Virus record (IMG/VR): IMGVR_UViG_3300009149_000021
DNA from: a virus
Lineage: Duplodnaviria > Heunggongvirae > Uroviricota > Caudoviricetes
Length of the DNA stretch: 64,000 nt
Reading direction: 5' to 3' (one strand)
Shown here piece after piece: positions 7,953-34,673 of this stretch; position 1 is the first letter of the stretch; the number at the start of each line of letters is the position of its first letter. The notes below the pieces were generated by a model. It worked only from the letters and a program-made list of their open reading frames with translations. It made no database searches and was not told where the DNA came from. Made by a program: the position numbers and the translations under genes.

Positions 7953-7957
7953 CAAAA

Positions 7958-8036
7958 TTAGTATGGTGCCTCCGGGCGTTTCTTACACACCATTCAACCC
8001 GGTTTTTGGGCTGTCCTAGATTTAGACGACAGAGGC
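7958..8036 (-). ncRNA. non-canonical tRNA-like element X2 (acceptor stem + CCA, odd T-loop GTAAGAA)
   Basis: GCCTCTG/CGGAGGC acceptor pairing followed by A-CCA; internal arms atypical (AAAAACC loop). Confidence 0.25.
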
Positions 8037-8041
8037 ATAAT

Positions 8042-8203
8042 TTATTTAAATGTTACACATTTTATTTTTGCATTTTCATATGAACACTTTGGACAATTAA
8101 TTTTATTTCCAGGTTTTAAATGTTCATGGAGTCCTTCCATCTTCTTAACAAGTATTGATCTTTTACCACAACTTTCACAATAAACTCTGATTCTTGTATT
8201 CAT
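8042..8203 (-). CDS. small zinc-ribbon protein
   Basis: CxxC ... CxxC (CESCGK...CPKCS). Internal Met start (MNTRIRVY) chosen because it is preceded by AAAGGAG at 7-nt spacing; the ORF-track start at 8245 overlaps a terminator hairpin. Confidence 0.45.
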   Translation of the reverse strand: MNTRIRVYCESCGKRSILVKKMEGLHEHLKPGNKINCPKCSYENAKIKCVTFK

Positions 8204-8212
8204 TATAGACTC

Positions 8213-8246
8213 CTTTAAAAATATGAGGGGCTTTTGGCCCCTCAAA
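8213..8246 (-). terminator. hairpin GAGGGGC-TTTT-GCCCCTC followed by T-run (minus strand)
   Basis: 8-bp GC stem then ATATTTTTAAAGGAG on the minus strand, just downstream of tRNA-His. Confidence 0.4.
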
Positions 8247-8252
8247 TGATTC

Positions 8253-8328
8253 TGGGGTGACCGGAGGAACTCGAATCCTCGTGACCTGATTCACAGTCAG
8301 GTGCCTGATCCATCTCGGCTACGGCCAC
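8253..8328 (-). tRNA. tRNA-His (anticodon GUG); discriminator C, G-1 not encoded
   Basis: GTGGCCG-TA-GCC..GGC-CCTGA-CTGTGAA-TCAGG-GAGGA-TTCGAGT-TCCTC-CGGTCAC-C-CCA. Confidence 0.7.
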
Positions 8329-8410
8329 AATCTAGCAAGATTTTTTCTTGCTTTAATTAGTTTTTTAGATTAATCTTCCGAAAAATCTTAGCTTTAGAAA
8401 TATAAAAAAC

Positions 8411-8540
8411 AAAGAGACTTATATGAAAAAGTATTTTAATTGGGTGATGTTGGATTTGAACCAACCACTTTTTGTCTATTCAACAAATATTCTACCATCT
8501 GAATTAATCTCCGAAGTAACTCTTTCTACCACTGCTTTGT
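8411..8540 (-). ncRNA. tRNA-like repeat unit A (candidate Y-RNA-like/YrlA-type ncRNA)
   Basis: Minus strand carries the conserved AGCAGTGGTAGAAAGAGTTACTTC (D-arm-like) motif plus T-arm GTTGG-TTCAAAT-CCAAC, but no complementary acceptor stem; ends with CATATAAGTCTCTTT shared with the other units. Confidence 0.4.
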
Positions 8541-8549
8541 TTTAATAGT

Positions 8550-8626
8550 TGGTCGGGATAGCAGGAGTTGAACCTGCGACCTTTCGGACCCAAACCGAAC
8601 GCCCTACCAGACTGAGCTATACCCCG
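8550..8626 (-). tRNA. tRNA-Pro (anticodon UGG), CCA encoded
   Basis: CGGGGTA-TA-GCTC..GGGC-TTCGG-TTTGGGT-CCGAA..GCAGG-TTCAACT-CCTGC-TATCCCG-A-CCA. Confidence 0.8.
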
Positions 8627-8631
8627 ATAAT

Positions 8632-8832
8632 TTATTTAAAAATTTTTATTTTTGTCCATTTAATACTTTTAATGAAAATCAAATACGACCAAATGGCAGG
8701 CCAAAACAGAAATAATATAATAGAAAAAATTAGTGTATCTTGATAACCAGCATTATACGAAAAAATGTCAAAACTCAATACGCTAATAATACTTACTGCT
8801 AAATACAAAACAAACACATATACAGTTACCAT
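8632..8832 (-). CDS. small hydrophobic membrane protein (ORF-track N-terminus overlaps tRNA-Asn; internal Met start used)
   Basis: Hydrophobic stretch VYVFVLYLAVSIISVL and IILFLFWPAIWSYLIF; the first 37 aa of the 8632..8943 ORF translate a tRNA. Confidence 0.3.
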   Translation of the reverse strand: MVTVYVFVLYLAVSIISVLSFDIFSYNAGYQDTLIFSIILFLFWPAIWSYLIFIKSIKWTKIKIFK

Positions 8833-8861
8833 TGTATTTACCAACTCCTTCAAAAATAAAA

Positions 8862-8939
8862 TGGCTGCTGGGGAGGGACTTGAACCCACGACATCCTGAT
8901 TAACAGTCAGGCGCTCTAAACCAACTGAGCTACCCAGCA
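8862..8939 (-). tRNA. tRNA-Asn (anticodon GUU), CCA encoded
   Basis: TGCTGGG-TA-GCTC-AGTTGGTTTA-GAGC-CCTGA-CTGTTAA-TCAGG..GTGGG-TTCAAGT-CCCTC-CCCAGCA-G-CCA. Confidence 0.75.
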
Positions 8940-8986: not shown

Positions 8987-10720
8987 TTATTGTGTGTTTC
9001 CAAACGTTTCTGTCTCGATTTGGAAATATATTTTCTTTCTTCTTTTGGTTTTTTCCTGTTTTACAACAGGTTTATTTCTATCAGGATAACTATTACCAGA
9101 AGAAGTATTATTGAAGATATCGTTAACTTTTGCGGCAAATTGAATTATCCCCTCAGACCATCCACCAAGAATAAATGTTCTTTCATAATTCTCAGGAAGA
9201 AGAGAATCTTCATATCCCGCAATCTGACATAGGAATACGTTAACATTTCTATTAACCTTATTCCTATATTCTTTAACTAATTTAGGAACATCAATATAAT
9301 TGGATGTGCTTCTTAGCCATCTATAGTTGTTGTAATCTGATGGATCAAGTCCATACAATCCACCATGACCAGCTTGCATATCAGAATAGACGAATATGTT
9401 GTCCCAGTGTACTTTATTTTTTATAGCATCACTGAACGCCAACCATATTCCATTTTCTGTTGCACCACCAATTTCTGAACCAACTTCTTCAACAGTTTTA
9501 AGTTGATCGAAAATTGAAGATTTTTTCCTTATAGGAATCATCTTCAGTCTATCGCCAAACACACCAACAATACCTTCGTCGGAAACCATCCCAGTTATAA
9601 CACCCATCAAATTTCCAATATGGGAAACTGTGGATGTTCCATAAACGCTTAGATGTCCACTCTGTGCTGATCCAGAATTATCAACCAGGATCAAATTTCT
9701 TCCTTCTATTCTTGGAAGATTTCCCATTGATCGAGTCAGACATTCTTCCAAACCATCGAGAATAACAGAAGAAGCTATGTGTTCCACTATTCTGTATGCT
9801 GAATAATATCTAAAAGGAATTTGTCTCCCATCTGCTGCAGTTCCGACAAGTTTGTCCAACCAATATTTATGGTGGACTTTATTCTCAATGAAATTTCTGA
9901 TGTTTCTCAGAAGAGCCATGTGTCCCATGACATCAATACAATCTTTCCATGGTCTTCCTGCTGATCTCATTGATTCCCATGTTTCTCTTCCATCATCATT
10001 GAGTTTGAGTTTATCATCCAAAAGCTTCAATGTATTATCACCGAATGCACCAGCTAAACGAATAACATCAACAGTCTTGACATCTCTGTTCTCCATCCTA
10101 TATTTCGATAAGGTGTATTCGTTTGCATTTTTCAGAAAGTCAGACCATGATCTTTTCAAACTGTTTGGAATTGGTTTTCCATATGCGGCTAATTGATATG
10201 ATAATCCAGTGGCAGGTTCATCGCCTCTCTTGATTATGTGTTTTGCATATTTCCTTATAAGGCCAGTACCCTTAACCTTTGGATGGTTAGCTGCTCTTAT
10301 CAATATTGCTTGTGGTGTGACCCTCATATTATCAATATTTCTCAGATCACATGCTATCTTAAGAGTTTCCTCAGCATTATATCTCAATGCTTCATCAATG
10401 CATTTTTCGATTGTCTTGACTGGAGTTAAATTTCTCCATTCATAATCATCAATTGCATTGAGGGTATCTCTTAAATATTCTCTAGCTTTATCAGATATCC
10501 CAGATCTCCTAAGACCTACATCAGATCTTTTTCTTTTATCTTTCCTATCTGATTTATAATATTGTGGTTCACCGAAGAAACATGAAGCAGCAACAACACT
10601 CAATCTCAATAATGGATTATTAATATCAAATGAAGTTCCTCCCATGAAATTCTTATGAGCCGAATCATAAATCTTTTTCTCTGCTAAACTTTCATTCCTT
10701 TTCTTGTTTAAATAACTCAT
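8987..10720 (-). CDS. rsr: Ro60/TROVE-domain protein with C-terminal vWA (MIDAS) domain; Rsr-like
   Basis: N-terminal LLRLSVVAASCFFGEPQYY matches the Ro60 signature RFLCFGSEGGTYY; C-terminal LILVDNSGSAQSG is a DxSGS MIDAS motif. Established Ro60 = TROVE + vWA architecture. AAAGGAG RBS upstream of ATG. Confidence 0.7.
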   Translation of the reverse strand: MSYLNKKRNESLAEKKIYDSAHKNFMGGTSFDINNPLLRLSVVAASCFFGEPQYYKSDRKDKRKRSDVGLRRSGISDKAREYLRDTLNAIDDYEWRNLTPVKTIEKCIDEALRYNAEETLKIACDLRNIDNMRVTPQAILIRAANHPKVKGTGLIRKYAKHIIKRGDEPATGLSYQLAAYGKPIPNSLKRSWSDFLKNANEYTLSKYRMENRDVKTVDVIRLAGAFGDNTLKLLDDKLKLNDDGRETWESMRSAGRPWKDCIDVMGHMALLRNIRNFIENKVHHKYWLDKLVGTAADGRQIPFRYYSAYRIVEHIASSVILDGLEECLTRSMGNLPRIEGRNLILVDNSGSAQSGHLSVYGTSTVSHIGNLMGVITGMVSDEGIVGVFGDRLKMIPIRKKSSIFDQLKTVEEVGSEIGGATENGIWLAFSDAIKNKVHWDNIFVYSDMQAGHGGLYGLDPSDYNNYRWLRSTSNYIDVPKLVKEYRNKVNRNVNVFLCQIAGYEDSLLPENYERTFILGGWSEGIIQFAAKVNDIFNNTSSGNSYPDRNKPVVKQEKTKRRKKIYFQIETETFGNTQ

Positions 10721-18169: not shown

Positions 18170-18610
18170 TCAAAGAAACCTTTGCAAGCTTCTAATTTCC
18201 ATATTCGACCAAACAATTGTCTGGTCACAATCTTCACAGTATTGGAAGTTTGCCACTTTTCCGATACGGTGTTTTTGATCTTTTTCTAGCTCACCATCAT
18301 ACAACAAATACGTCTGACCAAATGATATATGATCAATTGATTTTAGAATTGTGCATGTGTGAGGTTTTCTCTTCTTAGTCAAGAAATTAAAACACGGATG
18401 TTTGTTCATGTTATCTTCATCAATTCTTTCTCTATCCAGGACAGAGAATTGAACCTTATCGAAATTCATTTTCTTTCGAGTTAATAAATCGATGGTTTTT
18501 CGTTTTCTATTATATTCAATCCATCGCTTCCCATCTACTCGAATATGATTTTTACCTGATTTCTCAAGGTCGCCAATAGCCACTTCTATTTTGCTTTTTG
18601 ATTTGCTCAT
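18170..18610 (-). CDS. hypothetical protein
   Basis: ORF 146 aa; overlaps the next gene by 4 nt. Confidence 0.4.
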   Translation of the reverse strand: MSKSKSKIEVAIGDLEKSGKNHIRVDGKRWIEYNRKRKTIDLLTRKKMNFDKVQFSVLDRERIDEDNMNKHPCFNFLTKKRKPHTCTILKSIDHISFGQTYLLYDGELEKDQKHRIGKVANFQYCEDCDQTIVWSNMEIRSLQRFL

Positions 18611-20187
18611 GCACGCCCCCCTATTTCTTTTCCACGTTTCACAATTTCAGGATCAGGATCAGATAACATTCCATCGATATTACCATAGGTTTCTAATGCA
18701 GTCATCCTTATCTTAGAGAAAGGATGCTTCATATCCCCTTTAGTAAAACCATGGATCTTCTTTGCTTCAAATGCTATTCTGACACTCGTATCATTTGTGT
18801 GGTGGGGAGTGAACCCCAGTTCTTTGCAGGCATGCAGGCGCATGTTATTATTTGGATCAAACAGATTATCTGACATGAATCCATCCTTCCTACATTTTTC
18901 CAGGCGTTCCTTATATGGAATGCTTAGATTAATTCTAGGATCGATAGATAGTTTAGAAAACACATCAATGTTGCTCTTGACAACATCCGAGCACGTCTCC
19001 CTGTATTTCATGTCCTTGCTAAAACATCCTCTGATCAGATTCAGAGGATTTTTCATGAACTGATAGAACGCAAACTGTTCTATATCTGATTTCTCATATT
19101 CCACATCGAAATCATTATACACGAAACAATAAATATTCTTTATTATTTCTGGTAACTTTTTCCATTCTTCCTTTATAACTCTTGCCACATTCTTATGCTT
19201 TGTATTCATCAACAAAATTATAATGGATTTTGTTGGAGCTATTGACATTGCTTTTTCCATGTTAATGATTTGGATGAGATCATTGCTCTTGATCTCTTTT
19301 GCTTTACTTGAAAGGAACTTGACAACCATTGCCTGTTGTGTTCCTTTGAAATTCCTTATAAAGAATTCCCAGAATAATTTCTTACTCCGGATCTTTTCTC
19401 TGAAAATGTCCAAATATTTGCAGACATCTGCATCAGATTTATTTTTCAGAATTTTCATCATTACTAGATCCGTCTCAGATCTTTTCCGTTTCTTTCTATA
19501 GAACACGGAGAGTCGAGAGAAGATCATTGCAGATATCTTCGTATCTTTTAAAATGTAATCTGCTAATGGATTGATTTTGGTTGAGCTTGATTTCATATTT
19601 GCAAATATTTCATTTATATATTTGCACGAGCTTCTTTTCAGAATCTCATATAACTCATCAGTATTTTCATTTTTCAAATGAAAATCTATCAAAGATTTGA
19701 TCTCGTACGACTGGGGGAGCATTTCGAATCTTTTATAAAATTCATCGTTCCTCAGATCTGAGATCGCAGTCCTGGCGCTGATTGAATTATCATGCGTTAT
19801 TTTGAATTGCATCTTTCCAAGCATGATCTTATCAATGCTCGAATTGACCTGGATGTTTGTTTTGACCTCCAGGCTTTTCCACAACTCTAACAATTCTGAT
19901 GGTATCATATTTCTCAACCCTTCATGCAGAATTATTATATTCTGTTTGAAGATGTCCGGATCATCATTTGGCAGTTTTAATAAATAGAATATTCTTTCGA
20001 CCATTCTAGTAATTGCGTTTTTTTGTCTCTTAGAGAAAAACAATAATGATATATCATCATTATAATTTTTCAAACACCCAGCTAAACTTTTCTCTTCCTT
20101 CTCAATCGCGCTCATTCTCGCGAGATGTGCAATTGAACTTATTTCGGAATTCTTTGTTGTAATTCCTTTGAAAAAATTATCAAGCAT
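18607..20187 (-). CDS. hypothetical protein
   Basis: ORF 526 aa; no recognisable motif. Confidence 0.45.
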   Translation of the reverse strand: MLDNFFKGITTKNSEISSIAHLARMSAIEKEEKSLAGCLKNYNDDISLLFFSKRQKNAITRMVERIFYLLKLPNDDPDIFKQNIIILHEGLRNMIPSELLELWKSLEVKTNIQVNSSIDKIMLGKMQFKITHDNSISARTAISDLRNDEFYKRFEMLPQSYEIKSLIDFHLKNENTDELYEILKRSSCKYINEIFANMKSSSTKINPLADYILKDTKISAMIFSRLSVFYRKKRKRSETDLVMMKILKNKSDADVCKYLDIFREKIRSKKLFWEFFIRNFKGTQQAMVVKFLSSKAKEIKSNDLIQIINMEKAMSIAPTKSIIILLMNTKHKNVARVIKEEWKKLPEIIKNIYCFVYNDFDVEYEKSDIEQFAFYQFMKNPLNLIRGCFSKDMKYRETCSDVVKSNIDVFSKLSIDPRINLSIPYKERLEKCRKDGFMSDNLFDPNNNMRLHACKELGFTPHHTNDTSVRIAFEAKKIHGFTKGDMKHPFSKIRMTALETYGNIDGMLSDPDPEIVKRGKEIGGRA

Positions 20188-20256: not shown

Positions 20257-22059
20257 TTATAAAATACTTATTTTTTCTGTTTCTTCTTTTACAACGTCTA
20301 CTTTTACTGGTTCCGATTTACTCAAGATACCATAAACCATCATTGTATTTTTTGGAATCTCGATTGGTTTTTTACCATCGTTCCATATTACAATTCTGAG
20401 TTCATCTTCAAAGGATTCTGTCACAACATTTGGTTTTGTCAGAACATGGACATCTTCCAATGTATCCAATGCACTCCTTGGTTCAAAATGCATATGATAT
20501 CCTTTCTCAATGCTACATCTCCACCCAGTCCTTACAAATTTTGTTTCGCCTGGATTTATAATATTTTGTTCAATTGAAAAGAATCCAAATCCCGGAGATT
20601 TTCTTTCTTTGTATGATGGTACTATTAAATCTATCTCAGCAATATCAGGACACGCGATAAAATTTATTGTCGTGTCTGGTGTGTTATTGTAGTTGTATGT
20701 GCTATAACCACGATTGTAGTTGTTTGCCGCATAGTTGTTTGCCGCGTAGTTGTTTGATGCAGCTGATGCATTCGTTCCGCTTGTGGTTGTTGGTTTTGTA
20801 ACAGTTGACTCAGTCGTAGTCGGTTCGGTTTCTGTTGACTCAGTTGTGACTGGTTTGGTTTCTTCTGGTTTTGTGTCAGTCTCTATTGATATCAAAACAA
20901 AATCTTTACCATCAACAACTTTTATTTTATCCGAATCTCGTTTAACTTCTTCATATTTTTCTAATGCATGCCTGCTTTGTTCACTGAGCGGCTCCGCATT
21001 CGCGATATAGATGGTTGCTAAAATTTCATAAAAATTTGATTTAAATAACCACGTTGCAGCATTATTCAATCTTTTTATTACTGGTTTATCATATCCATCA
21101 GCACCCGCATCTATGAACAATCCCTTTCCGAGTTTGCAAAGATATTCTCCTAATTGACGTTCCTCAATTGGTTTTCCATTCTTGGCAAAAATAGAATTGA
21201 TTCTATTTAGATTTACATATTTATCAAAAAGATGACTTAGCAGAACTTCTGCTTTTGCATCTTCAGTTTTTATATCTTCGGTTGTTTCATTTCCCATTGC
21301 TTTCTCCATAAGATTTAATTCTGGCGTATCCACTGTTTTTTGGTTTGTTATTTTTTTAAATATTTCTCTCACAAGTTTAAAAATCATTCTTTCACCCTTA
21401 AATGTTTTATTATGCACAATAGGTCTAAAAACAATTCCTCCAATTAAATTATTTTCTAGTGAAATTTCATGCAACATCAATGATATAGCAGAAATCTTTT
21501 TGTCTGGTGTCAATTTTAATATATCTTCCATTTTTCCGGATCTTATCACTGGTACAGTTTTCATCTCTAGCATTCTTGCCAATTCTTTAACTCTGTCCCA
21601 TCCAACAAAAATTCCATTTATTGATATATCGTGTATCCACCAGTGATTTTGTGGAGAATAAATAACCATAGAATCCATTGGAATTCCAAATTTTGTTGGG
21701 TTGCCGGCTGGGTGTTTAAAATTAAAGAATCCACCAAACAGCACTCCATATATTTGTACCTTTACTTTTTCTGATCTACAAAATTCAATTATTTTTTTAT
21801 AATGAATAGATACAACATCCCCAGCACAACCATAAAAGCTTTCATCTGCAAAACCATATTTTCCACCAATTGCCAAATTGCCATCAGGATCACATAATAT
21901 GGAAACACAACTTCCTCTTATTTTTTCCGTCGCAACCCACTCATGACTATTTCCATTTGAGGCTTCGATGTCTGCTATAACTGTTGGTGATAATTCCTGT
22001 ATTCCATAATATCTTCGAAATACATCTTTTAGTTTTTCTGGTTGTAGAATATAAGTCAT
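20257..22059 (-). CDS. RNA-ligase-like nucleotidyltransferase (Rnl2-type motifs) fused via Thr/Pro-rich linker to a dUTPase-fold domain
   Basis: N-terminus: ATEKIRGS (motif I KxxG), GGIVFRP (motif IV-like), FKLVRE (motif V-like). Linker: TKPEETKPVTTESTETEPTTT then NNYAANNYAANNY. C-terminus: AEIDL, PRSALD and VIWNDG match dUTPase motifs 1, 2 and 3-tail; motif 3 core is TESFE instead of IDSDY. Confidence 0.5.
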   Translation of the reverse strand: MTYILQPEKLKDVFRRYYGIQELSPTVIADIEASNGNSHEWVATEKIRGSCVSILCDPDGNLAIGGKYGFADESFYGCAGDVVSIHYKKIIEFCRSEKVKVQIYGVLFGGFFNFKHPAGNPTKFGIPMDSMVIYSPQNHWWIHDISINGIFVGWDRVKELARMLEMKTVPVIRSGKMEDILKLTPDKKISAISLMLHEISLENNLIGGIVFRPIVHNKTFKGERMIFKLVREIFKKITNQKTVDTPELNLMEKAMGNETTEDIKTEDAKAEVLLSHLFDKYVNLNRINSIFAKNGKPIEERQLGEYLCKLGKGLFIDAGADGYDKPVIKRLNNAATWLFKSNFYEILATIYIANAEPLSEQSRHALEKYEEVKRDSDKIKVVDGKDFVLISIETDTKPEETKPVTTESTETEPTTTESTVTKPTTTSGTNASAASNNYAANNYAANNYNRGYSTYNYNNTPDTTINFIACPDIAEIDLIVPSYKERKSPGFGFFSIEQNIINPGETKFVRTGWRCSIEKGYHMHFEPRSALDTLEDVHVLTKPNVVTESFEDELRIVIWNDGKKPIEIPKNTMMVYGILSKSEPVKVDVVKEETEKISIL

Positions 22060-22631
22060 TCTTTCTCCTCTTTATCAATTAGGTCAAATAAAGAAATATT
22101 AAATTTAATCCATGCAAACGAATTTCCCCATGTGTGTTTTGTTCCTGGACTAGCAGGCATATCTGTTTCTGTCCATGAAAAAGCAAACATAATATCACAA
22201 TTTCCATTTTCAATATTTCTCTTTTTAAAACCACTAAATATTTTTATCTCCGCACCAAGATCAATTGCTTTTTGTATTTCTAATAAAGAATTTATTCCTG
22301 TTATTCTTTGAAAGTTTTTATGATAATAATTGCTTATTGATCCGGGACTTTTAAATCCTTCCTCCACATACTTTCCGTTTTTGAATTCCGATGGTAGACA
22401 CAAGATCAATTTGTATATAGGATTTTCTAAAAATAATTGAACAGCAAGATGATCAGACCATGCCGCACCACCAGAAATTAAAATGAACTCATCATTAGTG
22501 TAAAGTTTTACAATGACATTCATCTTCTTATTTAATAGGCTTTTCATATTCATAAAAAGTTCTGGTGTCAATTTATCATTAATTTTAAAATCTCTCCCCG
22601 CAGTACCTATAATTGCTATCTTCATTACCAA
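22056..22631 (-). CDS. DprA/Smf-like (SLOG superfamily) Rossmann-domain protein
   Basis: IAIIGTAGRD and LISGGAAWSDHLA match the DprA motifs (VAIVGSR ... ISGxAxGxDxxAH). Confidence 0.5.
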   Translation of the reverse strand: MVMKIAIIGTAGRDFKINDKLTPELFMNMKSLLNKKMNVIVKLYTNDEFILISGGAAWSDHLAVQLFLENPIYKLILCLPSEFKNGKYVEEGFKSPGSISNYYHKNFQRITGINSLLEIQKAIDLGAEIKIFSGFKKRNIENGNCDIMFAFSWTETDMPASPGTKHTWGNSFAWIKFNISLFDLIDKEEKE

Positions 22632-23527
22632 TCCTCATCCTCATCTTCATCTTCATAATCATCATCATCATATTCATCATATTCTTCCTCAGGTTCTGCT
22701 TCGGGCACTGCCTCAGATTCCATCCTAATACTAGGGGCACAACAGCTTTCCGAACGAACTGACAAAAATTCACCATCTGATTGACCTTCAGATGTTTCTT
22801 CCAAATCTGGTGGTTGATATTTTAATTCGGATATACGCATCCTAGATTCATGATATTCCTGTGGAAGATTGAAAAGAAAAATAACATTAAATAAACTTAT
22901 ATCATCTAAAAGACACACCAATCTAGGCAATATTACATTTTCCCAGATATTATGTTTATTTGCAAGGCCCGCGCCCACTTTAGATATGAGAAATATTTTA
23001 TCTTGAGATTTTCTAATACGATCAATTAAATTATCGGATTCTTCTTCATATACTTGCATGTATTCTTTTGCTGTATAATATGATGAGTCTGCGTGTGATG
23101 GATATTTTTTTGTTACAAATCCATATGAATTTAATTCATTTCTCAATTTAGCAGCCACACCACAACCTTCTCTCATTGTGTTATCACCAAATACAAAAAT
23201 ACATTCCTGATGATTTCTTAGAAAAATTTTATCTATGAAAACCTCTCTCCTAAGACACTTTTCATTCGAGCTATCACCCGTATTCATTCGACGTATTTTT
23301 CGTTCATATGCAGCATCATCTGGAAAATATTCCCACTCCTTTTCAATAAAAAGATTCTTTTCATCTATTCCTTCATCTAATTCCACATATATTTTTTTTC
23401 TCATCGCCTTGTGTTTATAATAAGAATCATATAAAGGTATAAAAGAGTGATCAATTCTTTTAAACAATTTATATTTCATTATTCTTAAATTATCTTTTTC
23501 GGCTAGTAGCGTATCATATAAATTCAT
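22625..23527 (-). CDS. hypothetical protein with extreme acidic C-terminal tail
   Basis: ORF 300 aa ending EPEEEYDEYDDDDYEDEDEDEDW. Confidence 0.4.
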   Translation of the reverse strand: MNLYDTLLAEKDNLRIMKYKLFKRIDHSFIPLYDSYYKHKAMRKKIYVELDEGIDEKNLFIEKEWEYFPDDAAYERKIRRMNTGDSSNEKCLRREVFIDKIFLRNHQECIFVFGDNTMREGCGVAAKLRNELNSYGFVTKKYPSHADSSYYTAKEYMQVYEEESDNLIDRIRKSQDKIFLISKVGAGLANKHNIWENVILPRLVCLLDDISLFNVIFLFNLPQEYHESRMRISELKYQPPDLEETSEGQSDGEFLSVRSESCCAPSIRMESEAVPEAEPEEEYDEYDDDDYEDEDEDEDW

Positions 23528-23539: not shown

Positions 23540-24892
23540 TCATTTTATCATTTCAAGATATTTAAATGCATCGTTTTTATCAACGATTTCACCTTCCAAT
23601 GTTTTTTCAATTAATTCATTCTTTATATTTTTTATCCATGGTCCTGGTTCAAAACAAGAATAGAATTCCATTATTTCATTTCCATCGAGTGGTGATTTTA
23701 TTTCAGATGGTTTTTCTGGAATATACTCACATTCCAATATACTATCAAAAAATTCTGTATTTTTATCCAGTTCTATATCGGATTTTCCCAATAGTATTAG
23801 TGGTTGAAGAATCTCTACATGCTTTCTAATGAATCTTGAAAATAATCTTCTATTGGGTTTATTATCACATGCTTCCTTGAGATGCTTCACATCCATATGG
23901 CTTGCAACGAGTTTAGAAATGAAATTGGTTTCAACTCTTTTCATTTTTAAATCGTCACATATAATTCTGGCCATCGCTCCACCATAATACGCATGGGCTG
24001 TAAATTTATACATTCCTTCTTGTCCACTACGAGTTAGTAATTTTCCAGTATCATGTATAAGAGCGGCGAATCTTATTAAAACATCTGTCGTCAACTTTGA
24101 TACATTTTCCAAAACATCAATAGTATGCTCATATACATCTTTCCTATGCCACGCACTTGATTGAGAAAAATATTTCATGGATTGGACGGGCGGCACAATA
24201 TATTTTAATAACCCCGACCACTCAAGATGATATATAGCATTCCTTATATTTTCACTTGGACATCCAAGAATTTTAAATAATTCATCTCGAATCCTTTCTT
24301 TAGAAATTGACGCTATATTTCTACAATTTTTTGATATAGTCCTTGAGAGACTTTCATCTATATTGAATCCGAGTTGTGCCCTGAATCTCATTGCTCTCAA
24401 CATCCGCAACCAATCCTCTTCCATTCTTTTTTCGGGATCACCAATGGCTCTGATAATCTTTCTTTTAATATCACTCTGTCCATCAAAATAATCAATTATT
24501 TCACCAGTAATTGGATCCAATGCCAGTGCATTCATTGTGAAGTCTCGTCGTTTACAATCTTCTTCCAATGTTCTTGCTACTTCCACATCAGCATGTCTCC
24601 CATCACAATTGTGATCAGTCCTAAATGTTGTTATCTCATACATTTCATTTGGACCACCATCCTTTATTACTATTGTCAGAGTGAGATGTTTCAACCCAGT
24701 ATCTTTAATTGTTATTCGGTCATCATTATATTTTTCAAATATTTCTTTTATTTGATCGGGCATCGCAGATGTCGTAAAGTCATAATCTTTTGGGGTTCTT
24801 CCTAATATATTATCTCTCACACAACCACCAACCAAATAAATCTCATGTCCTGCGTCTTTAATTATCTTCGCAATTGTCTGTATCGAGTTCAC
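23540..24892 (-). CDS. cca: tRNA nucleotidyltransferase (CCA-adding enzyme) with HD domain
   Basis: Head-domain GGCVRD..DYDF; HD motif AALIHDTGK; 450 aa. Confidence 0.8.
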   Translation of the reverse strand: MNSIQTIAKIIKDAGHEIYLVGGCVRDNILGRTPKDYDFTTSAMPDQIKEIFEKYNDDRITIKDTGLKHLTLTIVIKDGGPNEMYEITTFRTDHNCDGRHADVEVARTLEEDCKRRDFTMNALALDPITGEIIDYFDGQSDIKRKIIRAIGDPEKRMEEDWLRMLRAMRFRAQLGFNIDESLSRTISKNCRNIASISKERIRDELFKILGCPSENIRNAIYHLEWSGLLKYIVPPVQSMKYFSQSSAWHRKDVYEHTIDVLENVSKLTTDVLIRFAALIHDTGKLLTRSGQEGMYKFTAHAYYGGAMARIICDDLKMKRVETNFISKLVASHMDVKHLKEACDNKPNRRLFSRFIRKHVEILQPLILLGKSDIELDKNTEFFDSILECEYIPEKPSEIKSPLDGNEIMEFYSCFEPGPWIKNIKNELIEKTLEGEIVDKNDAFKYLEMIK

Positions 24893-25793
24893 TTAATTTA
24901 TCCCCCTTATAAAAATTTATCAATTTATGAACATCAACAATTTTACCTTCTATATTTCTTAATATATCAGCTATATTAGCATTCTTCTCAAGTTTCAAAT
25001 CACCATAAAATTCTTCAATGCATTTTATTAATAACATTTTTATTTTTTCTTCATCAACTTCATATGGTATTGTAGAAGCATCATATAACTTCTCAAGCCT
25101 TGCTTCATTTCTTTCAAAAAAATCTAAGATTCTCTGTATTTCCCACTCGCCTCTGCGAATAGATTTTAAAACTTCATTATGCTTCATAAGATCCATTTCG
25201 CCAGTAGTTAAGAGTTCCTCAACCTCAAGGAGAAGTCTGACTAAATGTGATGCAAATTTTACATCATAACCATATTTCTCAACTATTGCTACACGCTTTC
25301 CTTCCGGAACTTTTTTCTGCATCTTATCTTTCTGGCTCATCGCATATCCTCTGAAGGTGTGCCAACATTGTTTGCTGACAAATATTCTTCTATTTTCCAG
25401 AACCATTTTTCCTATTCGTGTTATGTGAGTGTGTAATTGCTCTCTGGTAAAGAGAGAATCTAACATGTTGGGGTTGTTATTAGCCACCAATCTAAAATAC
25501 CGCACAATTGAAAATATTGTTCCTTCAGCTTCTTTCTTTTTATATATAAATTTCCCTGGTGTTTGAAATTGTTTAAATATGGGAATATTGTTATCGAATC
25601 CATGTATGTATCCAAATAAATTTGGAACTATAAATTGTTTTGGTGGAATTGTAAAACCGCAAATATCATAATCCGATTGGTCGGTTTGACATCCATATGC
25701 TTGTGATCCAACAATAGTTTCATATTGTAGGTTATCTACTATCCACTCATCAAAACAACAACATGCTTGTAAAACGGATTTATTTATAATCAT
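24858..25793 (-). CDS. minimal Pol-beta-superfamily nucleotidyltransferase
   Basis: VGSQAYGCQTDQSDYDI fits the G[SG]-x(9-13)-D-x-D NTase signature. Confidence 0.5.
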   Translation of the reverse strand: MIINKSVLQACCCFDEWIVDNLQYETIVGSQAYGCQTDQSDYDICGFTIPPKQFIVPNLFGYIHGFDNNIPIFKQFQTPGKFIYKKKEAEGTIFSIVRYFRLVANNNPNMLDSLFTREQLHTHITRIGKMVLENRRIFVSKQCWHTFRGYAMSQKDKMQKKVPEGKRVAIVEKYGYDVKFASHLVRLLLEVEELLTTGEMDLMKHNEVLKSIRRGEWEIQRILDFFERNEARLEKLYDASTIPYEVDEEKIKMLLIKCIEEFYGDLKLEKNANIADILRNIEGKIVDVHKLINFYKGDKLSELDTDNCEDN

Positions 25794-26077: not shown

Positions 26078-26527
26078 CTAACATGGTCGATTCTCCATAA
26101 GATACTTATAAGCCTCATGATACTTTTTAACTAATTTTATATCATTAGATGAAACTTTTTCCAACCTCAATACATTTATATTGTCTTTCAGGTCAGCAAT
26201 TTTTACCTGATATGCTATTGAATTTTCACACACACGTGCAATATATTGCATATATTCTTCTTCATCTCTCTTTGATATTGCGTCGATTGCACAGAGAACA
26301 TCATCACTAAATCCCATCTTCTTCAATGTCTTTATAGATATCGGTGTGTCTTCGATTATATCATGTAGGATTGCTGTTATGACAATATCTTGCTCATTAG
26401 GGACCGAATTCATTACTCTGAGGCAGTGAAGAATATATGGTTGATTTGCTCTGTCCGTGGCCCCATAATGAAAATTCAATGCAACCTTCAATGCCTTTTC
26501 AATTAAATTTTCTTCTCTAATTTTCAT
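26078..26527 (-). CDS. small HD-domain hydrolase, (p)ppGpp-hydrolase (SpoT/Mesh1)-like
   Basis: HCLRV...ILHDIIEDT matches the H...HD..EDT hydrolase signature of RelA/SpoT-type HD domains. Confidence 0.55.
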   Translation of the reverse strand: MKIREENLIEKALKVALNFHYGATDRANQPYILHCLRVMNSVPNEQDIVITAILHDIIEDTPISIKTLKKMGFSDDVLCAIDAISKRDEEEYMQYIARVCENSIAYQVKIADLKDNINVLRLEKVSSNDIKLVKKYHEAYKYLMENRPC

Positions 26528-27387: not shown

Positions 27388-28209
27388 TCAGGCCGGGTTT
27401 GCTCCTCTTTCCACTAAATACTCTTTTATCTCTGAATTGCAAGCATTTCTGACTAAATAATTTCTATGAAGATCTACCCTACAATTACATTCTTCCACAA
27501 GATATTTAATCAGAGACATATTTCCTTGTTTACATGCAACCTTTAAACTATAATGTGCACATGCATATGGTGGGCATCCTCTCGATATAAAATACTTTAC
27601 AATATCATTATACCCTTTTTCAGCAGCTCTTCTCATTGGATGACATTGATATTGCATGATGCTGGCACCTTTTTCTTCAACTAAGTATTTTACAATTTCT
27701 ATATTATCACTTTCAACAGCATAGGATATAAACAAATTATAAAAAACTTCTGGATAATTATCTATGAGTATTTTTGCAAAATCATTGTTTTCATACATAA
27801 TAGCATACTCAACAATCTTCTGAGGTTTTGGCAGATTATTTTTCCATTCTAGAAATAAATCTATATTATTTAAACATGCCAGCAATCGATATGCATTTTT
27901 TTGTGGTTCATAACCAGCGGTCCATGCTCTTAGAATATCAATAGAATTTTCACCTCTGTTGAAGATGTTTGCAAGATCTTTTATAAAAATAATATTGACA
28001 TTTTTACAAAGCATTTCCCGTGTTATTTCAAAATTTGTTTCTTTTTCTTTCTCTTTCTTCACTGGTGCATCATAATCTTTGATAAATGCTGCAAAAAAGT
28101 TTCTAATTGCTTCAAAAATCTTCACGTCAATCCTCCCAGATTTCTTTGATAACTTCTCTTTCTTTTTCCGATAAACCAACAATCCTATTAATAATTCTAT
28201 CTTTTTCAA
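27388..28209 (-). CDS. ankyrin-repeat protein
   Basis: Repeating AAEKGYNDIVKYFISRG / ACKQGNMSLIKYLVEE ankyrin-like units. Confidence 0.5.
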   Translation of the reverse strand: MKKIELLIGLLVYRKKKEKLSKKSGRIDVKIFEAIRNFFAAFIKDYDAPVKKEKEKETNFEITREMLCKNVNIIFIKDLANIFNRGENSIDILRAWTAGYEPQKNAYRLLACLNNIDLFLEWKNNLPKPQKIVEYAIMYENNDFAKILIDNYPEVFYNLFISYAVESDNIEIVKYLVEEKGASIMQYQCHPMRRAAEKGYNDIVKYFISRGCPPYACAHYSLKVACKQGNMSLIKYLVEECNCRVDLHRNYLVRNACNSEIKEYLVERGANPA

Positions 28210-29782
28210 ACCCTTTTGGCATTAACCCTTCTGGTTCAAATGGAATGTATGCTGGATCATCATATCTATGAAATTCTCTGACCTCTTCAACATTTGCGAT
28301 TTTCCTAGCCCACACGGACAAATTTGTTGACCCACATTGCATATCACAATTATACGCTCTTTGATTTTCCTCATCCCAATATGGTCTATCGCAAGAAATA
28401 GTATATTTAAAAACATCCAAAAAATTCAGATGTTTGGCCAAAAACCATTGTTCACTTTTCATCAGATCACTCAAACCATAAAAAAATTCTATTCTATTCC
28501 CACAAATTGTGCCTGTTTTAAAAAGCGAATTTAAAGAATCTATAAAGTTTCTCGAATTATCTGGATAAGATCCAGACTCTGTCATATTTGCCCACCCAGC
28601 ACACAAATACACAAAATCATATTCATTTTTTAATATCAACCCTTCAGCATATGCCGCCATGACTGTAGAAAAAACCATGTTTCTTCCAGCAGTCCATGCT
28701 ATTGTTTGCTTCAATCCTTCTTCTGTCCCAGTCTCGATTTTAACATTTTCGTTCATCAACATACTAAAATTATCGATTTTTGAGTATGCATCCTCTAAAC
28801 TAATTATTTCCAAAGGGATGTTCATTTCTCTGCAAATATTTTGTATTGCCCACTCTTCACATTTTTGACCCCTGTGTCCATATTTAAAATGGACGGCGGT
28901 CACATCTTTATCCAATTTTTTCAAAAGTGCCAATGTTGTTGTTGAATCTATTCCTCCGCTTGCCGCTACCAAATGTTTAACTCTTGGTGATTTTATAGAT
29001 TCCAAAATCTGTTTGTCCCACGATGGATGTGCGTAATTTGGTTCAAATGGTATTTTATTTATGAATCCAGAATCAATATCTATTTCTAAAATTCTGTGTG
29101 GTTGTATATTATGATGATACCAATCTTCCCAGACATTCATTCCATCAGTTTTAGATCCAGTTATATCCTCTATCACCTCTCCAATTGTTTCATTTAAACT
29201 ATGGAGCAAATAGCCATAACCTCTTATATAGCCCTGAGATAAAGGATTGTGATTCTTAATTGCGTATAATTTTTTCTTAAAAGAATCATACATTATAGCA
29301 GAAACACCACCACTTATAAATTCCATAGCAGCCTTAATATCATATCCATAATTTAAGTATGCATGGACAATTGCTTCAGAATCTATATCTGTGTGGAACG
29401 AAAATCCCCTTTGTTTCAATTCTGATATACTTTTTGTGGAAATTGCTCCATTGTGAACCAGACATATATTTCGTTCTTCTTCTCCTAGAAAAATTGGCTG
29501 CATTCCGTCTTCTGATGATTTTTCAGTTTCTGGTTGTGCTCGGCATATTCCAATAACTATATCATTTGGTCTTATCCCATCCGAATATAATTTTAAGATA
29601 TCATCTCTACAATCAGAATAACTTTTAGAATATCTTTTTCCAAAACTTGTATTATCATCCACGCCGATTACAACAAACGCACATCCATCATTTCCTCTTT
29701 TCTCCGCCCCTTTAAATAATAAATCTAATCTTTTTATTCCAAGAATAGATTCTCTTCCCCAGTATGCAAATATGCCACACAT
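28127..29782 (-). CDS. asnB: asparagine synthetase (glutamine-hydrolysing)-like
   Basis: N-terminal MCGIFAY (Ntn amidotransferase Cys2); PP-loop SGGIDST. Confidence 0.75.
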   Translation of the reverse strand: MCGIFAYWGRESILGIKRLDLLFKGAEKRGNDGCAFVVIGVDDNTSFGKRYSKSYSDCRDDILKLYSDGIRPNDIVIGICRAQPETEKSSEDGMQPIFLGEEERNICLVHNGAISTKSISELKQRGFSFHTDIDSEAIVHAYLNYGYDIKAAMEFISGGVSAIMYDSFKKKLYAIKNHNPLSQGYIRGYGYLLHSLNETIGEVIEDITGSKTDGMNVWEDWYHHNIQPHRILEIDIDSGFINKIPFEPNYAHPSWDKQILESIKSPRVKHLVAASGGIDSTTTLALLKKLDKDVTAVHFKYGHRGQKCEEWAIQNICREMNIPLEIISLEDAYSKIDNFSMLMNENVKIETGTEEGLKQTIAWTAGRNMVFSTVMAAYAEGLILKNEYDFVYLCAGWANMTESGSYPDNSRNFIDSLNSLFKTGTICGNRIEFFYGLSDLMKSEQWFLAKHLNFLDVFKYTISCDRPYWDEENQRAYNCDMQCGSTNLSVWARKIANVEEVREFHRYDDPAYIPFEPEGLMPKGFEKDRIINRIVGLSEKEREVIKEIWED

Positions 29783-32174: not shown

Positions 32175-32909
32175 TTAAAAACTCCCTGTTAAATAGTTAA
32201 CACTCAACCTTTTCAAATAATTTTCCGTAATTGTCTTTCTGGGATACTCAAAATTGTTTAAATTATCAGAATAATATTGTAATATGCTCCGATCATAAAA
32301 CGGACGAAATATCCCTAAATCAAACAAAATAACATTTTTCCTAAAACAAGCTTTACAACTCAGGCACTCGGTCGTGCCTGATGGTTTAAAACAAGAAAAT
32401 GTTAATTTTTGTAAATCATTTTCATCGAGAATAGTGTTTTTTAATGTTTGTTTCACCATTGCTATTTTAGAATACTCACTGAATAAACTTCCTATAGATA
32501 CTCTTTTGGAATATGTGCTCATAAAAAATTCATTGGATTTATCTATAAATATTTTTGAATTATCATGGACTCTATCATCTAAAGTATTACCTATTAAAAT
32601 AGAAAGATCATCCTTGTTGAAGTATTTCAATGTGATTAATATTAACATCAAATTCCGATATGGGATGAACACTTCATCTGCATCTTCCAACAGATCGAAT
32701 AGATCATGATATATTGGCAAAAACTTATCCATTAAATTTGATCCAAATTTCTTCGATAGTTGAGTGAGTGTCTCTTCTATTTTACTTAATTCTGCATGTT
32801 GATAATCAAGACCCATGTGGACATAAACAAAATAATCAGTAATATCGTGGATGTTCGCCAATGTGCACACTGAGTCGAGTCCGCCTGAGAATAATAATAT
32901 TTTTTTCAA
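32175..32909 (-). CDS. QueC-like PP-loop ATPase (7-cyano-7-deazaguanine synthase family)
   Basis: MKKILLFSGGLDS PP-loop; DYQH; IPYRNLMLILITL (QueC PGRN region); C-terminal Cys cluster CFKPSGTTECLSCKAC. Confidence 0.55.
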   Translation of the reverse strand: MKKILLFSGGLDSVCTLANIHDITDYFVYVHMGLDYQHAELSKIEETLTQLSKKFGSNLMDKFLPIYHDLFDLLEDADEVFIPYRNLMLILITLKYFNKDDLSILIGNTLDDRVHDNSKIFIDKSNEFFMSTYSKRVSIGSLFSEYSKIAMVKQTLKNTILDENDLQKLTFSCFKPSGTTECLSCKACFRKNVILFDLGIFRPFYDRSILQYYSDNLNNFEYPRKTITENYLKRLSVNYLTGSF

Positions 32910-32922: not shown

Positions 32923-34662
32923 TTAGAAATTCAATCCTATTGAATTTAAATAGTATCTAAATAGTTGTAGTGTTGCTGGTTCGCTTTTCATTTCAACCGT
33001 TTTCGCATAACCAGTATTAAATAAATTTCTAAGTAAACTAATTTTGCTTCCAAGATCATCGGATTTTATATTTACTTCTTTTAAATTTTCTATTGCATCA
33101 TATGCTATCATTGCCCAAACTTCCATCTCGCCAATTCTCTGTGCTCCCTGGCCAGATGCGGGTTGGATTGTTTTCCTCGTGTAGTTTCCAACTGTTCTTG
33201 CTTTGAGCTTTCCATCTATAGTATGTATAAGTTTCATTAAAAACATATTACCAACCGCAACAGGTCCAATCGTTCTTCCCTGTAGTTTCAGAGGATAATA
33301 TTGTTTTGTCGCAGTATAATCCATGAATAAATCCAGATTATCTTTTGTGAAACTTTCGAATGGTGGTTGTATAAGAACCAAATCTTCAATTAATTTTTTA
33401 TCCATTCCATGTCTTTTAATTAAATTTGCTACTTCCTTGCTATACCATTTGTCTTTAGATGTATCTATATGATTGGTTATACCTGCCAAAGCTTTCATGG
33501 CGTATTTAGGATCTTCATCAAATTTCTTCGATAGTTTTTGTTTTAGGAAATGCATACCAAGTCCAGCGTGCAATTCAAACAGCTGGCCAATATTCATACG
33601 AGAAATTATACTCAGCGATCCTAATATAACTTCCAAAGGTTGTCCCCACGGAGTTACAGGCATTTTTTTATCTGGAACAATAATACTTATAACACCTTTA
33701 TTACCATGACGATTGGAAAATTTGTCCCCAACCCTTGTGTATTTTTTATAGGTGTATTTTATTTTCATTATCATACCATCAATTCTCACACCTTTATCAT
33801 TGATATGACCTTTGAATTTATGAATATCACAATTCATAGCATCAATTGAATTATTCAGATCGCTATCTGAAATTTTATCTTTCAATTTTATCATTTCACC
33901 ATGAATATGTTTTGAATTTTCTAGAACTGATACAATATAATGATTGAACTCACTGTAGTTTTTGCACCAATCATTTATATAGAATTTCACATCTGTTACA
34001 GTAATATCATCTTTCAATGTTATTGGTCTCGGGGAATCACATAAGAATCTTGGGTTGCTTGAAACATATTTTATTAGAAGGACTGGATCATTCTTTTTTA
34101 CAATATCACCAATTTTCGGAATCGGTTTATAATCTTTTCTATCTAATGAAAGCAGAACTTCATTCATATTAAGACTTATAATCAATTCATCTTCAGCAAG
34201 TGATGTGAATTTTTCAGCAGCTGATTCGGAAAAAACTATAGAATCCTCATGACAATAACCAAAGTATTCCATGTACCCGACTAACATATTTCTTCCATAC
34301 TTTATATTTCCATTTTCAGTACTAATATGTTCGTAGATGATATCACCAGTTTTAAATTCTTCATCGGTTTCATAATAACAGTTCAGATACCAATGCATTT
34401 TAGATGTCTCAAAAGTTTCATCCTCATATTGCAAAATCAGTAATTGGTTATTCTTAAACAAAACCTTTCCTGATTTCTCAGCAATCTTAGTATATAAACC
34501 AAGATGTGAAATGTTATCATAACCAGTACATATCAAAGGAATTTCTGGATTTTCCAAAATCAATGACTGCTTCATTTGAGAAGCAGCCATTTGACAACGG
34601 GTAGGGTCATCATTTTGAACAAATGGTATTAGACAAATGGGAAATGTCGTAAAGTCAGACAT
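32923..34662 (-). CDS. multisubunit RNA polymerase beta subunit, C-terminal half
   Basis: LIPFVQNDDPTRCQMAASQMKQ (beta motif IPFLEHDDANRALMGxNMQRQ); GDKFSNRHGNKGVIS (GDKxxxRHGNKGVxS). Own AAGGAG RBS 11 nt after the stop of the N-half gene. Confidence 0.85.
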   Translation of the reverse strand: MSDFTTFPICLIPFVQNDDPTRCQMAASQMKQSLILENPEIPLICTGYDNISHLGLYTKIAEKSGKVLFKNNQLLILQYEDETFETSKMHWYLNCYYETDEEFKTGDIIYEHISTENGNIKYGRNMLVGYMEYFGYCHEDSIVFSESAAEKFTSLAEDELIISLNMNEVLLSLDRKDYKPIPKIGDIVKKNDPVLLIKYVSSNPRFLCDSPRPITLKDDITVTDVKFYINDWCKNYSEFNHYIVSVLENSKHIHGEMIKLKDKISDSDLNNSIDAMNCDIHKFKGHINDKGVRIDGMIMKIKYTYKKYTRVGDKFSNRHGNKGVISIIVPDKKMPVTPWGQPLEVILGSLSIISRMNIGQLFELHAGLGMHFLKQKLSKKFDEDPKYAMKALAGITNHIDTSKDKWYSKEVANLIKRHGMDKKLIEDLVLIQPPFESFTKDNLDLFMDYTATKQYYPLKLQGRTIGPVAVGNMFLMKLIHTIDGKLKARTVGNYTRKTIQPASGQGAQRIGEMEVWAMIAYDAIENLKEVNIKSDDLGSKISLLRNLFNTGYAKTVEMKSEPATLQLFRYYLNSIGLNF

Positions 34663-34673
34663 ATTTTCTCCTT

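Follow-up and report, generated by a model that had tools for sequence, protein, structure and literature searches.

In the RNA ligase 2 (Rnl2) of bacteriophage T4, Glu99 and Arg55 contact the ribose of AMP and Lys227 contacts the phosphate (PMC3149579). The R55K and K227Q variants of this enzyme lose enzyme adenylylation but still seal pre-adenylylated ends (PMC3149579). Across the ligase superfamily the catalytic metal is held by carboxylates of motifs I, III and IV, and the motif V lysine is required for the reaction with ATP (PMC7261155). The Rnl2 fusions described so far are N-terminal ones, for example to an HNH domain (PMC7824862). In dUTPases the active site is assembled from the motifs of three subunits, motif 5 included (PMC8961515), and certain dUTPase-related proteins of herpesviruses and of bovine immunodeficiency virus (BIV) have neither the catalytic motifs nor dUTPase activity and have been retained for binding-based roles (PMC8961515, PMC4261571). 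Here we describe a gene in which an Rnl2-like body and a dUTPase fold are joined in a single polypeptide. The gene occupies positions 20257..22059, on the minus strand, of a 64,000-nucleotide stretch (the window) of a 116.9-kb contig from an uncultured tailed phage (IMG/VR record IMGVR_UViG_3300009149_000021). Its product carries the residue replacements of a protein in which both folds have lost much of their catalytic apparatus, and it lies among genes of RNA repair.

The open reading frame (ORF) comprises 600 codons and a stop, and the 600-aa protein has an identical sequence in three assemblies of the phage. The translation start region (22056..22069, minus strand) was read from the sequence and the ORF ends: an AGGAG Shine-Dalgarno element at 22065-22069 lies 5 bases ahead of the ATG, and the start overlaps the stop of an upstream 191-aa ORF as ATGA. 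Three parts can be distinguished in the protein, namely a complete ligase body of T4 Rnl2 type (aa 1-375), a low-complexity linker that is disordered (aa ~376-460) and a dUTPase jelly-roll (aa 461-590). This reading of the whole frame draws on the ORF call, Pfam, PHROGs and NCBIfam. An initial annotation, made from the sequence alone, had proposed just such a fusion of an RNA-ligase-like nucleotidyltransferase, a linker and a dUTPase-fold domain, and Pfam, NCBIfam, AlphaFold2 (AF2) and Foldseek agree with it. Hidden Markov models (HMMs) built from the nearest homologues gave E-values of 4e-59 and 6e-28 for the two halves, and with these models no second such ORF was found within the 64-kb window. 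The full-length AF2 model is confident for aa 1-375, with predicted local distance difference test (pLDDT) values of mostly 80-98.

An exhaustive HMMER search of 1.84 billion representative proteins returned 1063 matches, among which a single other cluster (P0002/P0151) covers both halves (P0002, E=6e-110); the remaining matches listed are Rnl2-like proteins of ~330 aa or dUTPases of ~150-210 aa. P0002 is a copy broken by a run of Ns. The complete form, P0151 (572 aa; GenBank MCK9597015.1), is an orthologue that is 37% identical, and its gene lies in a syntenic block of another uncultured phage. When the full protein, the C-terminal domain alone or a linker-free alignment was used in word-indexed searches, only the query itself was recovered, and no further fusion loci were found in IMG/VR, JGI metagenome contigs or GTDB genomes. 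The fusion architecture is real and nearly unique, and the earlier statement that it had no obvious precedent holds to the extent of this one orthologous cluster.

The N-terminal half is recognised by the Pfam RNA_ligase model PF09414 (aa 40-230, E=3.7e-9, 37.4 bits against a domain cut-off of 27 bits), by the NCBIfam Rnl2 model TIGR02307 (aa 16-296, E=6.9e-20, 71.8 bits against an equivalog cut-off of 197.15) and, at the N-terminus, by PHROG 548 ‘RNA ligase’ (E=7e-17). The nucleotidyltransferase domain of Rnl2 type defined by the Pfam and NCBIfam matches and by AF2 and Foldseek spans aa 1-240 (21340..22059, minus strand), where pLDDT is mostly above 90. Foldseek matched this part to the adenylyltransferase domain of Rnl2 (1s68, TMt 0.77) and to trypanosome REL1 (0.72), and a match to full-length T4 Rnl2 (2hvr/2hvq) at E~1e-14 extended over ~360 aligned columns. 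A helical domain of the kind found at the C-terminus of Rnl2 follows at aa ~241-375 (20935..21339, minus strand). It was identified by the homologue HMM, which spans aa 18-351, by profile comparison, by Foldseek and by AF2, which places helices there at pLDDT ~80-87. A 40-sequence homologue profile covers both domains of 2hvq with E=5.6e-74.

This profile was used to map T4 Rnl2 numbering through 2hvq/1s68, and the residues at each position were compared with those of 114 Rnl2-like homologues. The motif I block (WVATEKIRGSC; 21907..21939, minus strand) retains the nucleophile in both lineages as Lys46 (T4 Lys35; TEKIRG; codon 21922-21924), so that the catalytic lysine on which the initial annotation had made its reading depend is present. 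In the same block Arg48 stands in place of Rnl2 His37 and Cys51 in place of Asn40. At the motif Ia position of T4 Arg55, which is arginine in 96% of the homologues, the fusion protein has Lys67 (21859..21861, minus strand). In the motif III block (QIYGVLFGGFF; 21724..21756, minus strand) both lineages have Val106 (codon 21742-21744) for T4 Glu99, a glutamate in 94% of the 114 homologues. T4 Gln106 and Phe119 are replaced by Asp129 and His143, and the motif IIIa aspartate (T4 Asp120) is retained in both lineages as Asp144. In the motif IV block (ENNLIGGIVFRP; 21421..21456, minus strand) T4 Glu204 has become Gly207 in the window protein only, the sister lineage having kept the glutamate, and a loss in one lineage alone fits a relaxed constraint on catalysis. 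The motif V block (GERMIFKLVRE; 21364..21396, minus strand) retains Lys228 (T4 Lys225) and has Val230, or isoleucine in the sister, for T4 Lys227, which is lysine in 92% of the homologues. Among the 114 Rnl2-like homologues only the fusion proteins combine H37R, R55K, E99V, Q106D and K227V/I.

Since the motif III glutamate, the second motif V lysine, the motif I histidine and the motif Ia arginine are all replaced, the window protein is predicted to be unable, or very poorly able, to carry out the first step of ligation, in which ATP is converted to enzyme-AMP. The later steps would be doubtful too because the motif III and motif IV glutamates have been lost. The initial annotation had described this half as a covalent nucleotidyltransferase; the lysine on which that description depends is there, but the annotation missed that residues which Rnl2-type ligases need for the reaction with ATP are lost.

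The C-terminal half has the eight-stranded jelly-roll fold of a homotrimeric dUTPase, with degenerate catalytic motifs (aa 461-590; 20290..20679, minus strand), as shown by profiles, AF2 and Foldseek. It matches the Pfam dUTPase model PF00692 (aa 479-572, E=1.4e-7), the NCBIfam dUTPase model TIGR00576 (E=1.6e-13, 50.6 bits against a cut-off of 102.55) and dUTPases of known structure, the best of them 8hrv (aa 478-584, E=4e-9). An AF2 model of aa 456-600 has a pLDDT of 89, and the top 50 PDB matches to the model of this domain in Foldseek are all trimeric dUTPases (TM ~0.72-0.77), although a dUTPase alignment went into the model, so that it does not stand wholly apart from the sequence evidence. 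Profile and structure matches being to dUTPases, the assignment of a dUTPase fold in the initial annotation is borne out. Assignment to the dCTP deaminases was considered and rejected, as only dUTPase models and structures match the domain.

The dUTPase motifs were read from an alignment with 33 dUTPases, supplemented by a tool alignment with 28 of them. Motif 1 aligns to SPGFGFF (aa 488-494; remnant SPGFGFFS, 20575..20598, minus strand), in which Gly492 stands where aspartate is found in 33/33 homologues; the AEIDL stretch (aa 473-477) previously taken for motif 1 lies elsewhere. The motif 2 remnant (FEPRSALD; 20464..20487, minus strand) retains Arg528 and Ser529 but has Ala530 for the invariant glycine and Glu526 for the upstream arginine, so that PRSALD had been correctly placed as motif 2, with its arginine and serine, but lacks the glycine. 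In the sister lineage the corresponding residues are Arg-Asn-Ser, with asparagine for Ser529. The motif 3 remnant (LTKPNVVTESFEDEL; 20398..20442, minus strand) reads KPNVVTESFEDEL against SPGT(V/I)DSDYRGE(I/V) in dUTPases, with Thr547 (codon 20419-20421) at the position of the catalytic aspartate. Its core, VVTESFEDE against T(V/I)DSDYRGE in homologues, confirms the earlier observation of TESFE in place of IDSDY; further changes are Asn541 to Thr, Gly544 to Asn, Thr545 to Val and Arg-Gly to Glu-Asp. VIWNDG, which had been read as the tail of motif 3, is the strand that follows it. A match to motif 4 had also been claimed, but in the motif 4 remnant (KNTMMVYGI; 20326..20352, minus strand) the residues R-I-A-Q read MMVY, the Arg, Ala and Gln having become Met, Val and Tyr. 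The protein then ends, 10 residues past the last strand, with an acidic tail (KEETEKISIL and the stop; 20257..20289, minus strand) and without the motif 5 arm (RGxGGFGSTG), which both lineages lack. Nor does any of the three reading frames of the minus strand encode the motif beyond the stop, and a motif 5 hidden by a frameshift was rejected on that ground.

With the four retained motifs degenerate and the motif 5 arm absent, hydrolysis of dUTP by this domain is very unlikely. An active nucleotide hydrolase or deaminase of altered specificity, one of the possibilities raised at the outset, would share the fold and motif order of the trimeric dUTPases and could call on Arg528 and Ser529, both retained in the window phage. 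We regard it as highly improbable: the motif 3 aspartate is threonine, the motif 1 aspartate glycine and the motif 4 Arg/Gln Met/Tyr, motif 5 is missing, Ser529 is asparagine in the sister lineage and the score of 50.6 bits lies far under the NCBIfam dUTPase cut-off. The changes run across motifs 1-4, several of them to acidic or hydrophobic residues, a pattern that does not suggest a mere shift in specificity.

The other possibility raised at the outset was a non-catalytic, nucleotide-sensing role, of which the first part fits the data and the second is disfavoured. A domain acting as a ligand sensor would bind a nucleotide or small molecule without hydrolysis and control the ligase body. The segments of the former active site are conserved between the two lineages at 29/40 positions as against 52/90 elsewhere, the motif 3 hairpin has the length that it has in dUTPases and the aromatic Phe/Tyr550 is retained. 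The difference in conservation is not significant, however (p=0.12), and Asn541, present in all homologues, is replaced. Of the phosphate ligands hardly any is left, the Asp of motif 1, the Arg and Gln of motif 4 and the whole of motif 5 having been lost, and the acidic residues Glu526, Glu551 and Asp552 have been introduced. For these two reasons binding of a triphosphate by the domain seems unlikely, and we consider control of the ligase body by such a sensor quite improbable.

The two lineages differ markedly in how their parts have diverged. The nucleotidyltransferase domain is 37% identical, the helical domain 24% and the linker 22% with gaps, and the dUTPase-fold domain, the best conserved part, is 62% identical without gaps. 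Residues that are invariant or nearly so in the 33 dUTPase homologues are replaced identically or similarly in both fusion lineages, and P0151 has the same degenerate states in both domains apart from the retained motif IV glutamate. The ligase body has diverged fast, its identities standing against 52-65% for neighbouring enzymes.

The linker (20680..20934, minus strand) was recognised as disordered and of low complexity from its composition and from pLDDT values of 25-35. It is rich in T/P/E and then in N/Y, and in the sister lineage the sequence, although 22% identical and with many gaps, is also Tyr-rich just ahead of the C-terminal domain. A 15-nt repeat had been noted in this region, and there is indeed an in-frame tandem repeat encoding (A)ANNY at 20716..20761 (2.7-3 copies, the lower figure being that of the detected repeat, 96% match). 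A second, imperfect repeat of 30 nt occurs twice at 20804..20863, in the T/E/P-rich part. The expectation that the linker would vary in length was not supported: across the three assemblies of the phage the 1803 nt of the gene vary by 1 nt and contain no indel, and the four sister-lineage loci retrieved, which come from at least three assemblies, do not differ from one another, in linker length or otherwise. Length polymorphism was rejected on the absence of indels across the assemblies of either lineage.

The fusion gene belongs to a block of tRNA and RNA repair genes. Within 4.5 kb upstream of it, all on the minus strand and all syntenic in the sister phage, are genes for a 300-aa DUF7831 protein (22625..23527), a CCA-adding tRNA nucleotidyltransferase with PolyA_pol, RNA-binding and HD domains (23540..24892), RlaP, the RNA-ligase-associated Pol-beta nucleotidyltransferase (PF10127; 24858..25793), and a 149-aa HD-domain phosphohydrolase (26078..26527). 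Two ORFs of 526 aa and 146 aa (18170..20187, minus strand) follow downstream, in the same order as in the sister lineage. A gene for a 577-aa Ro/TROVE (Rsr)-like RNA-binding protein (8987..10720, minus strand; phrog_850, E=6.6e-34, with weak Rsr and TROVE matches) lies ~9.5 kb downstream of the fusion gene. A NAD-dependent DNA ligase gene lies further downstream, and tRNA genes are interspersed. In the sister phage the order is the same, running from the HD protein through RlaP (62% identity), the CCA-adding enzyme (52%), DUF7831 (39%) and the fusion (37%) to orf526 (36%), orf146 (37%), orf246 (68%) and TROVE (65%). The name of RlaP reflects an association with RNA ligases, and the enzyme extends damaged RNA at its 3' end by adding nucleotides (PMC7824862, PMC12776372); CCA-adding enzymes and Ro/TROVE proteins are companions of ligases in the RNA-repair systems of large phages (PMC7824862, PMC12776372).

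The model that we favour, while holding it about equally apt to be wrong, is that the dead dUTPase fold tethers Rnl2-like heads which bind broken RNA without ordinary ATP-dependent ligation. The dUTPase fold would have been retained for its non-catalytic properties, that is self-association as a trimer and/or the docking of a partner, and the low-complexity linker would be a flexible tether. Three Rnl2-like heads would in this way be carried on tethers by a trimer core. They would recognise RNA that is nicked or broken, such as cleaved tRNA, and keep it in place, with the helical domain clamping the nicked duplex, and the products of neighbouring genes (RlaP, the CCA-adding enzyme, the phosphoesterases and the Ro-like protein) would process the RNA so held. 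As an alternative within the same model the heads might carry out the later ligation steps only. Firm observations are the domain architecture, the replaced residues, the pattern of conservation, the shared gene order and the rarity of the fusion; to these the model adds a trimer, the loss of both activities, the binding of RNA ends and a role in repair, all of which we infer.

Several observations weigh against this model. Neither lineage has lost the lysine nucleophile, and conservation between them is 60% in the six motif blocks of the ligase as against 29% in the rest of the domain (Fisher p=2.4e-5). This could mean that the active site is unconventional but working, although the test is not a clean one because the blocks also form the structural core. 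No Walker-A kinase other than SbcC is encoded in the 64-kb window, and homologue HMMs detected no second ligase of the fusion's type there; the fetched flanks likewise contain neither a kinase nor a second ligase. HD and metallophosphoesterase genes are present in the window, but with neither a polynucleotide kinase nor a second ligase in it the repair pathway is incomplete as seen. The full-length AF2 model is uninformative on the placement of the domains relative to one another, and the arguments from conservation rest on a single comparison since only two lineages exist.

Some of these points bear on another explanation, in which the Rnl2-like body would still ligate RNA by means of an unconventional site and the dUTPase fold would only oligomerise, regulate or localise it. 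Here Arg48 could take over the role of the motif V lysine, or a different nucleotide donor or a partner could be used. Asp144 and Lys228 are retained in both lineages along with Lys46, no other part of the domain is as conserved as the motif blocks and the full Rnl2 C-terminal domain, which is needed for nick binding, has been kept. The gene also stands beside that of RlaP, a family defined by association with RNA ligases, and within the 64-kb window there is no other ligase of this type. Against this, between four and six of the residues on each of which adenylylation depends in T4 Rnl2 and related ligases have been replaced, in two cases by an aliphatic side chain, the motif IV glutamate differs between the two lineages and the ligase body is among the fastest-evolving proteins of the block. 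We consider a working ligase rather unlikely, though it is the strongest of the rival explanations.

A bolder reading, which we think unlikely, would make the protein a new RNA-damage-response factor composed of two disabled folds, in which the remodelled, conserved pocket of the former dUTPase trimer binds a new ligand or partner and so switches or targets the three tethered heads. The ligand or partner might be an RNA end, a signalling nucleotide or a host ribotoxin, and the heads, working without self-adenylylation by ATP, might either seal ends that have been pre-adenylylated elsewhere or clamp tRNA halves for RlaP and the CCA-adding enzyme.

Multivalent binding through a ligase-shaped head and a trimeric core might alternatively serve no repair at all, the protein acting as a decoy or inhibitor of a host factor such as an anticodon nuclease or an RNA-targeting defence. 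Both enzyme folds look catalytically disabled and yet are conserved, viral pseudoenzymes, including the inactive herpesvirus dUTPase-like proteins, act through binding partners, and a gene of anti-defence type is also present in the window, encoding an Apyc1-like protein. Against such a role, no match to the defence-system protein models of PADLOC was obtained, and the conserved neighbours are repair enzymes and not known anti-defence genes. A decoy thus seems distinctly improbable. The Apyc1-like gene (6991-7770, minus strand) encodes a metallo-beta-lactamase-fold protein that matches the anti-Pycsar Apyc1 family (E=1.3e-16). It adjoins a calcineurin-like phosphoesterase gene (6233-6865, minus strand), with a tRNA cluster alongside (7878-8939), and its product could be either an anti-defence cyclic-nucleotide nuclease or an enzyme that processes RNA ends.

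Other features of the locus are less readily placed. The 191-aa ORF upstream of the fusion gene (22056..22631, minus strand) is translationally coupled to it and is not found in the sister lineage, and its product has no family match in Pfam, PHROGs, NCBIfam, PADLOC or PDB sequences. The 526-aa, 146-aa and DUF7831 neighbours, compared with PHROGs, Pfam and PADLOC, matched only DUF7831's own family and phrog_2072, and there was no other real match for the 526-aa and DUF7831 proteins in NCBIfam or for DUF7831 among PDB sequences. A 273-aa ankyrin-repeat protein (27388-28209, minus strand) is 31% identical to its counterpart in the sister phage. A few kb upstream of its repair block the sister phage carries a short TnpB/OrfB_IS605-like ORF with a Cas12f1-like TNB domain, the length of which depends on the assembly (165 aa or 213 aa; L005:2340-2837, L006:2196-2837).

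The window as a whole has ~32% G+C, seven tRNA genes and all of its long ORFs on the minus strand, and also encodes topoisomerase II, SbcCD and the NAD-dependent DNA ligase. At 32923-38592 (minus strand) lie the genes of a multisubunit RNA polymerase, whose beta subunit is split into pieces of 579 and 422 aa; the beta' piece has 876 aa. This beta' piece shares only ~25-30% identity with its best matches, among which are various phage records as well as entries that carry bacterial labels. From this low identity of the nearest RNA polymerase matches the source is judged to be a large tailed phage without a close cultured relative, and a uracil phage of AR9/PBS type was rejected on the same beta' evidence. 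No canonical dUTPase was found in the 64-kb window or the fetched flanks; nor was there a match to thymidylate synthase among the window ORFs scanned against Pfam/PHROGs or in those flanks. For four window ORFs, those of the CCA-adding enzyme (23540-24892) and RlaP (24858-25793) and those at 56906-57289 and 59546-60070, the coverage was by precomputed Pfam annotation only. The contigs of the sister phage (L004-L008; MCK9597015.1 / MCK9556184.1) carry phage genes, including RNA polymerase, RlaP and tRNA-repair genes, and are filed in bins of metagenome-assembled genomes labelled ‘Candidatus Pacearchaeota archaeon’ and ‘bacterium’, labels that are probably an artefact of binning.

The window also encodes a ribonucleotide reductase (50250-53993, minus strand; 1247 aa) of class II type with barrel and TSCPD domains, inside which lies an intein with an HNH endonuclease. 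A 551-aa fusion of glutamine amidotransferase and QueC (28127-29782, minus strand), a second, stand-alone QueC-like protein (244 aa; 32175-32909, minus strand) and a radical-SAM protein (54772-55791, minus strand) suggest a 7-deazaguanine pathway of preQ0/ADG type modifying DNA or tRNA. No DpdA/TGT was recognised in the window, and the syntenic locus of the sister phage contains no counterpart of either QueC gene.

On the evidence of its sequence the fusion protein is best classed as a repurposed scaffold within the Rnl2-type RNA-repair proteins of phages and not as a new enzyme of nucleotide metabolism. If this is correct, two unrelated nucleotide enzymes would have been turned jointly into a non-catalytic or partly catalytic device within a phage RNA-repair module, the range of dUTPase-fold pseudoenzymes would extend from herpesviruses and retroviruses to phages and the engineered Rnl2 variants that are defective in adenylylation and serve in the preparation of RNA libraries would have a counterpart in nature. 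Such a finding would surprise specialists in both ligases and dUTPases, and would be a warning that phage genes annotated as ‘RNA ligase’ or ‘dUTPase’ can be neither. Its reach would be limited as only two uncultured lineages carry the fusion.

The closest described system for the N-terminal half is T4 Rnl2 itself (gp24.1; 1S68, 2HVQ-2HVS), together with REL1, with which the fusion shares the two-domain body of nucleotidyltransferase and helical C-terminal domain. The motif I lysine, the motif IIIa aspartate and the first motif V lysine are common to T4 Rnl2 and the fusion protein, and both are phage genes in an RNA-repair setting. Unlike T4 Rnl2, the fusion has replacements of the motif III glutamate, the second motif V lysine, the motif I histidine, the motif Ia arginine and Gln106, and unlike the Rnl2 family it carries a C-terminal extension of ~225 aa made up of the linker and the dUTPase fold. 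In comparison with the engineered T4 Rnl2 variant R55K/K227Q, the fusion has Lys67, equivalent to R55K, and Val230, where K227 has been lost. It differs from the engineered variants in being also without the motif III glutamate and, in the window protein, the motif IV glutamate. Its last ligation step is doubtful on account of these further losses of catalytic residues.

The C-terminal half has the same jelly-roll and the same order of motifs as the homotrimeric dUTPases (H. pylori 8HRV, A. aeolicus 8Y1Q and M. tuberculosis), the closest sequences, of ~150-210 aa, being 30-36% identical to it. It is unlike them in its degenerate motifs, in the absence of motif 5 and in being fused through a long linker. 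A separate arrangement of the same fold was seen in P0015 (473 aa), in which three dUTPase-like repeats follow one another in one polypeptide, with a motif 5 arm in the last repeat only and a degenerate motif 3 in the middle one; judged by its sequence it looks like a single-chain pseudo-trimer. Human cytomegalovirus (HCMV) UL72 and UL31, human herpesvirus 6 (HHV-6) U45 and the BIV dUTPase-related protein are dUTPase-derived folds that, like the C-terminal domain, have lost the catalytic motifs. These herpesvirus and retrovirus proteins are nevertheless independent lineages, none of them linked to an RNA ligase, and those of the herpesviruses go back to dUTPases of the monomeric, double-domain type, so that the resemblance is a functional analogy only.

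A comparable degeneration of the Rnl2 fold is found in a family of ~320-aa Rnl2-like proteins (P0018, at L010:6001-6981, P0033, P0057, P0060, P0065 and P0100), a pseudo-ligase family that is apparently unannotated; the one locus inspected is phage-like. Leu, Met or Phe takes the place of the motif I lysine in these proteins, and degeneration also affects motifs III, IV and V. They share with the fusion the Rnl2 fold, the degeneration of motifs III-V and a histidine at the Phe119 position, but unlike it have no motif I lysine and no dUTPase domain. A close kinship between them and the ligase body was rejected on an identity of 18-24%, which also indicates that the two have degenerated independently. 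The presence of this lysine-less family in phage-like contigs indicates that non-catalytic Rnl2 folds do occur.

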